A DNA stretch of 64,000 nucleotides from the IMG/VR virus record IMGVR_UViG_2740892449_000004, one strand, 5' to 3'. Made by a program: the position numbers and the translations under genes. Below the pieces are notes generated by a model. The model saw only the letters and a list, made by a program, of their open reading frames with translations. It had not been told where the DNA came from and did not search any database. Shown piece after piece: positions 22,285 through 58,734 of the stretch. The stretch's first letter is position 1; each line of letters begins with the position of its first letter. Origin of the DNA: a virus (Duplodnaviria > Heunggongvirae > Uroviricota > Caudoviricetes).

Positions 22285-23424
22285 TTACACAGTATCAATG
22301 TGTCTGCTAAGGAATCTCCCGAACTGATTTGTTGACCCAAAATAGTTAGGATAAGCCTTTTTAAGAGATTTAATGTTGTTAGTGGCAAGCAGCACCGCAA
22401 TTAATACTTCAGGATCCGCATCATCCTTATTAAGTTCCTGGAGGGCTTGTTCCGATTCTTTTTTCCTAAAAGGTTTCACAGAAACAAGAAACTTTCCAGT
22501 ATCCTTGCCATTTTTTGTTATGGCGTTTCTCATCCTCACCAAAAAGAATCCATTATGGTTTTTGGGCAGGCTTTTCTTTAGGTTTGCATCTGATGTCAGC
22601 TTCATTGCAAATGTATATGTACTTAATTTTGAGCGAACAGATAAAGCCTCCTCCAATGTTTTAAGCTCTGTTTGATAATTTTTGATGGTTTCATCATCAA
22701 GAATACAGGCACCTTCATCATGAGCAACTAGGCATCCAGAAAGATAAAAAAATCTTCTCCACTCAGGGTGACCTTCATTAGAAGTTTTCAGCTTAATATT
22801 TTCAAGTGTATCTATTATCTCCAGACTTGTTGCCCAAGCATGTTGGAGTTCTGTTCTTAGTTGTACTTCGATTTTAGTTTTACTCCACGGATTGTTACCG
22901 TTTTCTTCATCAAAACAACTATATGCAAGGTGAATGCCACTATATCCGCTTGGCTTTGGAGTTAAATAGTCATATTCCTTTAAGATTTTATGCTTGGAGC
23001 GACTTTTAACTAGTCGGTCTTTTAGTTTCTTTAGTTGTTCGATGTTTCTAACTATAGCTCTACATCCGCCAATATCCTGCATTCTAGTAAGGGCTATTGC
23101 ATTATTTGTTGCGCCGCCGTCAAGACTTGGACGCTCCAGTTTATCAATTATTGTGCTAAGTCTTTTTAGGCGTCTTGCAACAATAATCTTATTCTCTTTA
23201 TCAACTTTTTTTGCAGCCCTATCAAGATGATTTTTCATTAGCATCAATGGATATAAATGAAGCTCGCGGAAATTTTGAATCATTTTAATTGCTTCTTCTC
23301 GCTCTGCGCCCTCACAACCATGTCTAATTTTTCTGGCTGCTTTTTCTATTTGAGATTTCGAATATTTAAGTTCGCATTTTTGGCTTTGATATACTTCACT
23401 GCCCATTACTAACATCCAGTTCAA
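22285..23424 (-). CDS. RelA/SpoT-domain nucleotidyltransferase (toxSAS) fused to a C-terminal domain; CapRel-like candidate
   Basis: Motifs RLKRLSTIIDKL, DIGGCRAIV, SGYSGIHLAY, EVQLRTELQHAWATSLE; visibly AT-rich; TTG at 23424 or ATG at 23415/23406 as start. Confidence 0.8.
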   Translation of the reverse strand: MNWMLVMGSEVYQSQKCELKYSKSQIEKAARKIRHGCEGAEREEAIKMIQNFRELHLYPLMLMKNHLDRAAKKVDKENKIIVARRLKRLSTIIDKLERPSLDGGATNNAIALTRMQDIGGCRAIVRNIEQLKKLKDRLVKSRSKHKILKEYDYLTPKPSGYSGIHLAYSCFDEENGNNPWSKTKIEVQLRTELQHAWATSLEIIDTLENIKLKTSNEGHPEWRRFFYLSGCLVAHDEGACILDDETIKNYQTELKTLEEALSVRSKLSTYTFAMKLTSDANLKKSLPKNHNGFFLVRMRNAITKNGKDTGKFLVSVKPFRKKESEQALQELNKDDADPEVLIAVLLATNNIKSLKKAYPNYFGSTNQFGRFLSRHIDTV

Positions 23425-24348: not shown

Positions 24349-24908
24349 TTAGTGCATGATGTTTGCCATTTCATAGGCGTCAGCCAGCAACTCCATCTCT
24401 GACTTGTTCAACAAGGTGAATTCTTTCTTGCCTCCTACCACGCCATCTGCATGAACAGGGACCAGCCAAGGGTATTTTTCTCTTACTTCAGCCGGTGCTG
24501 CATGCTGGTGGTGCCATCTGCAAAGGGGCAATTGCTTTTTGTGACAACCCGGCGCGGTACGACCGGAGATATGGTGCAGAGACACCTCTTCAGATATTAC
24601 TCCATGCATGTAGCAGGCAATGCAGGGGAGAGTGCCAAGAGCATTGGCGATGCGCCGTTCCTCCGCCGTTGGTGTTCTCCCTTCAAGCCACGAGATTTTA
24701 TTTTTACCGCGCTTTTCCGCGTTTTGCTGGCTGGTGGGCGCTCTTTCTGTTTAGCGATACGGCGGTCGATAGTATCCCGCATTATCTGATATTGAGATTC
24801 TCGCCAGACCGGATCAGCCAACTTCTCCCGTTGCCGAGCGATCGCTCGTTCTCTGGCTGCCTTCTGCCACTCGCGGCGCTGTTCAAGTTTTTGTTCGATT
24901 GTTTTCAT
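24349..24908 (-). CDS. ref: Ref-like HNH endonuclease, frame broken once
   Basis: Track ORFs 24597..24908 (basic N-terminus MKTIEQKLEQ) and 24349..24609 (Cys/His HNH-like SLHHISGRTAPGCHKK...CRWHH); span 560 nt = 3n+2. Confidence 0.65.
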
Positions 24909-24913
24909 ATGGC

Positions 24914-24941
24914 AAAAAAAAAAGGCGGCCTAATGGCCGCC
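24914..24941 (-). promoter_or_regulatory. Hairpin plus U-run in the ref leader (attenuator-like)
   Basis: Minus strand reads GGCGGCC-ATTA-GGCCGCC followed by ten T, ending 5 nt before the ref ATG. Confidence 0.4.
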
Positions 24942-25001
24942 AATGATGTCAAGGAGTTAAGTAATGGCAACGTCTTCGTAGTTGACAAAAACTGCGTCTT
25001 A

Positions 25002-25025
25002 ATTATAGCAATCAATTAGAGCAAT
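25002..25025 (-). promoter_or_regulatory. Putative ref promoter with overlapping C1 operator
   Basis: Minus strand shows ATTGCTCTAATTGAT directly followed by extended -10 TGCTATAAT; operator 17-mer at 25009..25025. Confidence 0.5.
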
Positions 25026-25131
25026 GGTAGATATTTTGTTAATCGCGAATCACATTTTTTCACTTCAGTACCTGTGTGCTATACTCCTTCTTGATTGATT
25101 GGATGCGGAATACAAACCCGCTCTTTTGTGC

Positions 25132-25158
25132 AGCCTGGCTCCTTGCCAGGCTTTTTTT
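25132..25158 (+). terminator. Plus-strand intrinsic terminator in the cra-ref intergenic region
   Basis: AGCCTGGC-TCCTT-GCCAGGCT followed by TTTTTT; preceded by a sigma70-like promoter TTTTCA-N17-TATACT at 25057..25085. Confidence 0.4.
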
Positions 25159-25176
25159 ATTTCATCATGGAAGCTG

Positions 25177-25467
25177 TTAATGCTTTGGACCTTGCTGAAC
25201 TGATTGAGAGGCTTTGTCAACGTGCCCCAAAAATTCGCCAAACTCAGACATCACTTTAGCAAAACCGCGCCGTGCTTCTTCCTCGGTGGCATTCATCACG
25301 AAATGTTCAGCACTACGCATACTTCTGACAGGGAACGCAACGGATATTGAGTCAATATCAGGCATTCTATCGCTCAGCTTTACAGTGACAATGACGGCTG
25401 GCGACTGAATATTAGTGCTCACTGACAGCACTACATATTTTCCGTCGATGTTGAAATTCTTTCTCAT
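25177..25467 (-). CDS. cra: Cra-like protein (cre-associated)
   Basis: ORF track 96 aa; directly downstream of cre, same strand. Confidence 0.55.
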   Translation of the reverse strand: MRKNFNIDGKYVVLSVSTNIQSPAVIVTVKLSDRMPDIDSISVAFPVRSMRSAEHFVMNATEEEARRGFAKVMSEFGEFLGHVDKASQSVQQGPKH

Positions 25468-25517: not shown

Positions 25518-26549
25518 CTAATCGCCATCTTCCAGCAGGCGCACCATTGCCCCTGTTTCACTATCCAGGTTACGGATATAGTTCATGACAATATTTACGT
25601 TGGTCCAGCCACCAGCTTGCATGATCTCCGGTATTGAAACTCCGGCGCGGGCCATATCTCGCGCGGCTCCGACACGGGCACTGTGTCCAGACCAGGCCAG
25701 GTACCTCTGACCAGAGTCATCCTTAGCCCCGTAAATCAATCGGTGAGTTGCTTCAAAAATCCCTTCCAGGGCGCGAGTTGATAGCTGGCTGGTGGATGAT
25801 GGCGAGGCAACACCATTTTTTCTGACCCGGCAAAACAAGTAGTTATTCGGATCATCAGCCACACCAGAGACGGAAATCCATCGCTCGACCAGTTTAGTTA
25901 CCCCCAGGCTAAGTGCCTTCTCTACACCTGCGGTGCTAACCAGCGTTTTCGTTCTGCCAATATGGATTAACATTCTCCCACCGTCAGTACGTGAGATATC
26001 TTTAACCCTGATCCTGGCAATTTCGGCTATACGTAACAGGGTGTTATAAGCAATCCCCAGAAATGCCAGATTCCGTATATCCTGGCAGCGATCGCTATTT
26101 CCCATGAGTGAACGAACCTGGTCGAAATCAGTGCGTTCGAACGCCAGCGCCTGTTTTGCACGCTCACCGGCATCAACGTTTTCTTTTCGGATCCGTCGCA
26201 TGACCAGTGAAACAGCATTGCTGTCACTTGGTCGTGGCAGCCCGGACCGACGATGAAGCATATTTAGCTGGCCCAAATGTTGCTGGATAGTTTTCACTGC
26301 CAGACCGCGCGCCTGAAGATATAGAAGATAATCGCGAACATCTTCAGGTTCTGCGGGAAACCATTTCCGGTTATTCAACTTGCACCATGCCGCCCATGAC
26401 CGGCAAACGGACAGAAGCATTTTCCAGGTATGCTCAGAAAACGCCTGGCGATCCCTGAACATGTCCATCAGGTTCTTGCGAACCTCATCACTCGTTGCAT
26501 CGACCGGTAATGCAGGCAAATTTTGGTGTACGGTCAGTAAATTGGACAT
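25518..26549 (-). CDS. cre: Cre site-specific tyrosine recombinase
   Basis: 343 aa starting MSNLLTVHQNLPALPVDATSDEVRKNLMDMFRDRQAFSEHTWKMLLSVCRSWAAWCKL, ending LEDGD; recognised as Cre. Confidence 0.97.
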   Translation of the reverse strand: MSNLLTVHQNLPALPVDATSDEVRKNLMDMFRDRQAFSEHTWKMLLSVCRSWAAWCKLNNRKWFPAEPEDVRDYLLYLQARGLAVKTIQQHLGQLNMLHRRSGLPRPSDSNAVSLVMRRIRKENVDAGERAKQALAFERTDFDQVRSLMGNSDRCQDIRNLAFLGIAYNTLLRIAEIARIRVKDISRTDGGRMLIHIGRTKTLVSTAGVEKALSLGVTKLVERWISVSGVADDPNNYLFCRVRKNGVASPSSTSQLSTRALEGIFEATHRLIYGAKDDSGQRYLAWSGHSARVGAARDMARAGVSIPEIMQAGGWTNVNIVMNYIRNLDSETGAMVRLLEDGD

Positions 26550-58717: not shown

Positions 58718-58734
58718 AAATTTATTAGAGCAAT
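58718..58734. promoter_or_regulatory. C1 operator, perfect match
   Basis: AAATTTATTAGAGCAAT, 17/17 to operator reverse complement; overlaps dmt stop, upstream of the tRNA cluster. Confidence 0.7.

Follow-up and report, generated by a model that had tools for sequence, protein, structure and literature searches.

The control of ref, which encodes a RecA-dependent HNH nuclease, has been studied in phage P1. An "attenuator-antiterminator control" of P1 ref is announced in the very title of Windle, Laufer and Hays (1988, J Bacteriol 170:4881); as far as this title conveys, an attenuator in the ref leader was already proposed in 1988, and the element considered here is not new. More is known of the expression and effects of the gene: ref mRNA increases 73-fold after inactivation of C1, with a lower level and a slightly later peak than other C1-controlled genes, H-NS binds the ref regulatory region, and Ref lowers lysogenisation 40-fold, harms the host and underlies phage-antibiotic synergy (PMC4713147). 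Four features are annotated in the ref stretch of the P1 GenBank record, namely the operator Oref, the C1-controlled promoter P2ref, a predicted promoter P1ref and the ref CDS. No terminator feature is annotated in the ref leader stretch returned from this record, and full-text literature searches (promoter names, P1 transcriptomics) yielded nothing on the ref leader. In the Q and N/nut systems of phage lambda, the downstream genes need read-through past a strong terminator.

The DNA analysed here (hereafter the window, i.e. the whole stretch of 64 kb) carries a closely related locus. Its 1.2-kb ref region is 96% identical to that of phage P1 (AF234172 1465-2686), with similarity also to P7, RCS47, SJ46 and others, and another stretch of the window is 98% identical to P7; on the basis of these identities, the window is a P1/P7-like phage-plasmid read in reverse orientation. 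The ref region is carried by 700 of 5,426 complete Escherichia coli genomes. Among complete E. coli genomes and plasmids, the closest matches to the window are 98.2-98.9% identical, and none exceeds 98.9%. Downstream of mat, an ORF with a RelA/SpoT nucleotidyltransferase domain occupies the place held by res/mod in P1 and by a SIR2-family gene in plasmid pNORD58_2, and this slot looks like a variable defence-gene site. The features discussed below are gathered in table 1.

Table 1. Position of the ref locus features, and of the other sites mentioned in the text, within the window.
Feature	Position	Strand	Details
RelA/SpoT-domain ORF	22285-23424	minus	379 aa; Pfam PF04607, E 3e-13
ref, RecA-dependent HNH nuclease	24349-24908	minus	frameshifted; Pfam PF16786 on homologues
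86-aa ORF (ref)	24349-24609	minus	contains the HNH domain
103-aa ORF (ref)	24597-24908	minus	truncated Ref
G3 run in ref	24679-24681	minus	G4 in P1
ref start codon ATG	24906-24908	minus	same ATG as in the P1 ref CDS; 5 nt past the U-tract
Spacer GCCAT	24909-24913	minus	between U-tract and ATG
U-tract, T10	24914-24923	minus	directly 3' of the stem
Predicted terminator hairpin, GGCGGCC-ATTA-GGCCGCC	24924-24941	minus	7 G-C pairs, tetraloop, -15.0 kcal/mol; 5' arm 24941-24935
P1ref promoter-like site, TTGCCA-16-CATCAT	24943-24970	minus	upstream TG; promoter scan; 'predicted' in the P1 record
GUUGCCA segment	24971-24965	minus	
Predicted 5' hairpin within the leader	24992-24972	minus	folding
Predicted 5' leader	24914-24995	minus	~82 nt; inferred +1 to end of U-run
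Extended -10 of P2ref, TGcTATAAT	25002-25010	minus	-10 annotated at 1980-1985 in P1
C1 operator (Oref), ATTGCTCTAATTGATTG	25009-25025	minus	pattern search; identical to the annotated P1 Oref
-35 of P2ref, CTACCA	25025-25030	minus	corresponds to P1 annotation 1957-1962
H-NS nucleation motif, CGATTAA	25039-25045	minus	CGATAAA in P1
Promoter-like site, TTTTCA-17-TATACT	25057-25085	plus	upstream TG
Terminator AGCCTGGCTCCTTGCCAGGCT and T7	25132-25160	plus	end of the candidate RNA unit 25057-25160
c8	25177-25467	minus	
Cre-like recombinase	25518-26549	minus	
Operator-to-terminator unit after the dmt-like gene	58515-58734	minus	
Operator pair of this unit	58707-58734	minus	overlapping
Terminator of this unit, TGCCCATCTTCGGGTGGGCG and T7	58541-58515	minus	

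The ref leader and its hairpin in the window

The operator preceding ref matches the 17-bp asymmetric C1 consensus ATTGCTCTAATAAATTT at 14 of 17 positions (3 mismatches), and is one of 15 consensus-like sites detected in the window, where shuffled sequence would give 0.2. The first-pass annotation described an extended -10 placed directly after this operator. Both elements are indeed there, but they overlap by 2 nt, and on its other side Oref overlaps by 1 nt a weak -35 (3/6 matches to TTGACA). With its 14/17 match and its overlap with the promoter, the site belongs to the class of C1-controlled operator-promoters known from P1. When +1 is placed 7 nt after the -10 (~24995), a 54-nt leader segment precedes the hairpin, and the terminated RNA would be ~75-82 nt long. 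Upstream of the promoter lies the nucleation motif that has been reported for H-NS at ref of P1, here with one substitution relative to P1; both forms of this motif are found among P1-like loci.

A second operator-to-terminator unit was observed in the window, directly after a dmt-like methyltransferase gene and upstream of two tRNA genes. This unit, 98% identical to P7, contains two overlapping C1 operators, perfect or nearly so, followed by ~190 nt without a convincing ORF and then by a terminator.

The hairpin of the ref leader is located ~55 nt downstream of the extended -10. The first-pass annotation had reported a GGCGGCC-ATTA-GGCCGCC stem-loop followed by ten U ending 5 nt before the ref ATG, and all of these elements were recovered. 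A strict terminator scan (stem of at least 7 bp, at least 6 G-C pairs, T-run of at least 7), applied to both strands of the window (128 kb), returned this hairpin as its sole match, and only about six distinct hairpins in the window passed a relaxed filter. The pattern is not due to chance. On an approximate d'Aubenton-Carafa-type scale, with energies from ViennaRNA, the window scores ~71 and P1 ~58. The element thus combines a G+C-rich stem with a short loop, an uninterrupted U-tract on the transcribed strand and a covarying stem (see below), as intrinsic terminators do, and by these sequence criteria it would be a strong intrinsic terminator, placed after the promoter and ahead of the first structural gene. 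A bidirectional terminator was ruled out, the plus strand having no T-run. As for the ten U, the count is right for the window, but the length of the run is polymorphic, varying from 7 to 10 among relatives (T8 in P1; T9 and T10 are also present in other loci), so that T10 is an allele and no fixed feature.

The ref gene itself is altered in the window. Where P1 and every comparable locus checked have G4, one G is lost, and the resulting frameshift gives two ORFs of 103 and 86 aa, the HNH domain being in a different frame from the truncated Ref. The window is the only locus with this deletion; among the P1-type loci in which a ref start can be recognised (84), 77 keep the 186-aa frame. The ref gene is, in this sequence, either a pseudogene or affected by a homopolymer sequencing error. 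A second small indel lies close to this one: c8 has a 1-nt deletion near its 3' end relative to P1 and pNORD58_2, which changes its C-terminus (96 aa versus 103 aa). This indel and the T10, like the ref frameshift, may be either genuine or sequencing errors. Two substitutions near the predicted start (AAGACGCAG in the window versus GAGCCGCAG in P1) are also unique among the 84 P1-type leaders compared. The position of the ref start codon is kept in homologues.

On the plus strand of the c8-ref region, a promoter-like site stands before a good terminator with T7. Together they would delimit a candidate antisense RNA of ~70 nt, complementary to the interval between c8 and ref and to the 3' end of c8; the sequence is identical in P1, where it is unannotated, and gives a sub-threshold Rfam match to SorX.

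Distribution and covariation of the hairpin among ref loci

Loci encoding Ref were gathered from viral contigs, genomes and plasmids. All 91 loci that combine a C1-type operator with a recognisable ref leader have a hairpin followed by a T-run, and 88 of these stems are fully paired. P1-type loci (82 with ref, plus the ref-less locus L002) share the arms GGCGGCC/GGCCGCC around a loop ATTA, ATCA or TAAA, with a T-run of 7-10 and a spacer GCCAT, GACCAT or ACCTT between T-run and start; five alleles carry G-U pairs at the base of the stem. Klebsiella and Salmonella loci, whose Ref is 65-68% identical, display the hairpin GACGGTC-TTCG-GACCGTC (GGCCGTC in two loci; loop TACG in L099), a T-run of 5-8 and 7-13 nt to an ATG or GTG. 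The neighbourhood of ref differs in these loci, with NinX-like genes upstream and without cre/c8, and their leaders keep an operator (ATTGCTCTAAT...) and a -10 (TGTATAAT, or TTATTAT in L099) ~40-45 nt before the hairpin. Finally, a Pantoea phage-plasmid with a Ref 61% identical keeps an operator, TTTGCTCTAATAAATTT, and a hairpin GCCGCC-TCCG-GGCGGC with T7, ~95 nt from the start.

When the 14 distinct hairpin alleles are aligned, 98% of cells are standard pairs, and three of the seven stem pairs have both partners substituted (G-C to A-U, C-G to U-A and G-C to C-G). The covariation score was reached by 0/500 shuffles, and pairing falls to 16-69% when the 3' partner is slid by 1-3 columns. This covariation argues for a selected stem; coming from only three or four independent lineages, it is supportive rather than overwhelming.

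The hairpin follows the C1 operator. Among 29 loci with a Ref homologue but without a C1-type operator, which include chromosomal versions of 171-172 aa located directly after the upstream gene as well as phage-plasmids with other palindromic operators, no terminator-like hairpin was found within 260 nt of the start, the sole match in this set being a weak 5-bp hairpin ~200 nt upstream in L017. Different palindromic operator-like sequences (e.g. TGTTAGAAAATCAATTTTGATTTTCTAACA) were observed ~60-100 nt upstream of ref in L185-L199, loci of other phage-plasmid lineages whose leaders lack a terminator; in several lineages, unrelated operators apparently place ref under the control of a repressor.

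The hairpin also decays with ref. Some P1-like plasmids lack ref but still carry its promoter region together with cre and c8. In one of the ref-less loci (L002, NZ_CP086223.1, 1590-1690), the -10 has been lost through a deletion of 13 bp between TAATTG repeats; the hairpin, with a stem mismatch and only T6, directly adjoins the stop of a convergent gene encoding a KilAC antirepressor. In another (L003, NZ_CP033632.1, 1590-1660), homology stops just before the hairpin. The terminator score is ~7 where ref is lost, and the terminator marks a recombination boundary in these ref-less plasmids. Because it is absent without the operator and decayed where ref was lost, the terminator is tied to both the C1-controlled promoter and ref.

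Possible routes of ref expression past the hairpin

We consider it quite probable that the hairpin and U-tract form a functional Rho-independent terminator in the ref leader, acting both as an attenuator and as an insulator. An attenuator had been suggested in the first-pass annotation, and this suggestion holds well: the element has the features of a strong terminator, lies in the leader between the C1 promoter and ref, and is kept in every C1-operator-type locus examined. Once C1 repression is lifted, RNA polymerase would start at the extended -10 promoter, most transcripts would stop ~75-82 nt downstream, in the U-tract, and a minority would read through into ref and be translated from a start that lacks a Shine-Dalgarno (SD) sequence, 5 nt past the U-tract. 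Transcripts of cre/c8 probably run into the ref leader as well, because the hairpin located behind c8 offers no U-tail on the c8 sense strand, its T-run being on the other one; the ref leader terminator would stop this read-through. The passage of polymerases into ref would be a constitutive leak rather than regulated antitermination, and the terminator, C1, H-NS and weak translation would together keep a toxic RecA-dependent nuclease low and slightly delayed. This attenuator and insulator reading is consistent with the lower and later induction of ref (PMC4713147). The terminator is in any case not absolute, since ref mRNA is clearly induced in vivo.

A terminator this strong might nevertheless need active antitermination, i.e. 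be efficient by default and suppressed by a leader structure in cis or by a phage or host factor in trans. We regard such regulated antitermination as possible but rather doubtful. It is the model that the 1988 title names ("attenuator-antiterminator", to the extent that a title can tell), and the 73-fold, late-peaking rise of ref mRNA contrasts with a terminator whose predicted strength is very high. An alternative pairing is also available in P1 and in the window, where GUUGCCA can form 7 bp with UGGCGGC (-6.6 to -7.7 kcal/mol), which covers six of the seven bases of the 5' arm, and three Salmonella/Klebsiella-type leaders offer a pairing of ACUGUCA with UGACGGU. These pairings are somewhat better than those of shuffled leaders, as 30/500, 22/500, 24/500 and 4/500 shuffles were as good (1-6%). 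However, the pairing is lost in three P1-type leader variants (the L023, L077 and L004 types) and in Klebsiella L099, all with intact ref and terminator, where 153-405 of 500 shuffles were as good. Moreover, the P1-type and Salmonella/Klebsiella lineages use non-homologous leader segments for it, and the terminator fold is more stable than the alternative by ~9 kcal/mol (P1-type) or ~4-5 kcal/mol (Salmonella-type). Not being conserved among natural leader types, the GUUGCCA:UGGCGGC pairing was not retained as a likely cis antiterminator. No Rfam 15 family passes its threshold on the ref leader, the best matches scoring 15-24 bits against thresholds of 37-75, all on the terminator; over the whole window, only three tRNAs pass. 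P1 is not known to have an antiterminator protein, and no candidate was identified for a signal or factor that would alter the read-through fraction.

Other candidates for control within the leader were rejected. A cis antiterminator formed by GCCGC at the 5' end of the leader conflicts with the predicted +1, which falls inside this motif, and the window has GACGC there. An anti-SD-like CUCC motif upstream of the hairpin could pair with an SD, but P1-type leaders have none to sequester. As regards a leader peptide, the leader contains no start codon with an SD, and the leader peptide expected of classical attenuators is thus lacking. In the window, a frame opening at UUG ends in a UGA overlapping the AUG, whereas with the T8 of P1 this frame enters ref. 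A leader peptide in a consistent frame is impossible because the T-run, varying from 7 to 10, shifts the frame.

Another way for ref to be expressed would be to start transcription beyond the reach of the terminator. Indeed, P1ref was found independently by our promoter scan (9/12 matches plus an upstream TG), the P1 record predicts the same promoter, and its inferred +1 (~24938-24935) lies inside the 5' arm of the hairpin. P1ref transcripts could not terminate at the hairpin, because their start falls inside this arm, and for part of the ref transcripts the terminator might then be of no consequence. It is unlikely, however, that the C1 promoter mainly makes a short terminated RNA while ref mRNA comes chiefly from P1ref, free of a hairpin that cannot form. 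P1ref is only predicted, with weak hexamers that drift within P1-type loci (GTGCCA, TGGCCA, AATCAT), and the Salmonella/Klebsiella and Pantoea leaders lack it, although operator, terminator and ref are all retained there. Having no operator, it would not by itself explain the 73-fold C1-dependent induction of ref mRNA.

The short RNA could also be the main product. A promoter, a short ORF-less transcript and a strong terminator do form a complete small-RNA unit; the unit that follows the dmt-like gene is likewise without a convincing ORF, and the motifs TGTCAAC and ACTCCYTGAC are conserved in the leader across lineages. Against this, the leader unit decays where ref is lost, its sequence is only ~60% conserved between lineages, with no shared structure found besides the terminator, its Rfam matches are all sub-threshold and terminator-driven, and no target was identified. 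That the terminated leader of ~75-82 nt is a C1-controlled small RNA with its own function, with the downstream ref being secondary, thus seems highly improbable to us.

The first-pass annotation also envisaged a translational control element, and noted the lack of an SD before the ref ATG. The latter point is correct: within the 20 nt upstream of the ATG, the best anti-SD duplex has an energy of +1.9 kcal/mol. The SD is absent from all P1-type leaders, while some Salmonella-type leaders have a weak or good one (GGGA, GGAG) at the right distance. Translational control, on the other hand, found no specific support, the predicted pairing of the initiation region being only moderate (probability ~0.5) and different in Salmonella/Klebsiella-type leaders. 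For the hairpin and U-tract to govern chiefly ribosome loading on an SD-less ref mRNA, through an S1/standby site or through sequestration of the AUG, is very unlikely in our opinion, even though no P1-type leader has an SD, the U-tract abuts the AUG, and in P1-type mRNAs the UGCCAU just before the AUG is predicted to pair with GUGGCA at codons 13-14. The pairing probability around the AUG is only ~0.5, and the UGCCAU pairing is found neither in the L077 type, which has lost it, nor in Salmonella-type mRNAs. Furthermore, the Pantoea terminator lies ~95 nt from the ATG, so that closeness to the start codon is not conserved, and what covariation keeps is a stem and U-run of terminator type rather than a ribosome-site structure. 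Sequestration of the AUG by codons 13-16 was rejected as a moderate, non-conserved pairing. What is conserved is the terminator, rather than its contact with the start codon.

A broader reading treats operator, leader, terminator and ref as an ancient selected module of C1-type phage-plasmids without a conserved cis antiterminator, which would have as a new consequence either a trans antitermination factor or a small-RNA leader with ref fed by P1ref; we hold this combination to be decidedly unlikely. If it were true, read-through could need an antitermination factor that acts in trans and is produced early, once C1 has been inactivated. In the other case, the ~80-nt leader could be a C1-controlled small RNA with a role of its own, and ref would be fed by a promoter starting inside the hairpin.

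Comparison with described leaders and terminators

With C1, H-NS and the SD-less start, the leader terminator would be one of four stacked restraints on ref. The tightness of the control of Ref matters for the biology of P1 and for the many P1-like plasmids present in clinical Enterobacteriaceae. What the comparison of loci adds to the 1988 proposal is modest. The terminator is conserved with compensatory changes in the stem, it is restricted to lineages with a C1 operator, and no cis antiterminator is conserved alongside it; these results bring the choice between leaky and regulated read-through into sharper focus.

The closest described element is the P1 ref leader attenuator itself (Windle 1988; GenBank M23246/M27041). 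It is the same locus, with homologous operator, extended -10, hairpin and ref start; stem and loop are identical, and the 54-nt segment before the hairpin differs by four substitutions. P1 further differs from the window in its T8 (T10 in the window), its CGATAAA form of the H-NS motif, its unshifted ref and the GAGCCGCAG of its start region.

The leader-peptide attenuators of trp, his and pyrBI are alike in having a leader terminator just upstream of the first structural gene and expression through read-through. Unlike them, the ref leader has no leader ORF in a consistent frame, no conserved alternative hairpin and no apparent metabolic signal. The lambda pR'-tR' (6S RNA)/Q and N/nut systems also resemble the ref leader, as a phage promoter is followed by a close and strong terminator, so that by default only a short RNA is made and the genes beyond it need read-through. 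However, P1 is not known to have a factor like Q or N, nor a qut or nut site, and ref is a C1-controlled early gene and not a late operon. A last likeness is with the insulating or leaky terminators that damp toxic genes, which constitute a functional category and no family: in the ref leader, too, a strong terminator stands before a toxic gene, here that of a host-toxic nuclease, alongside a repressor, H-NS and a weak start.
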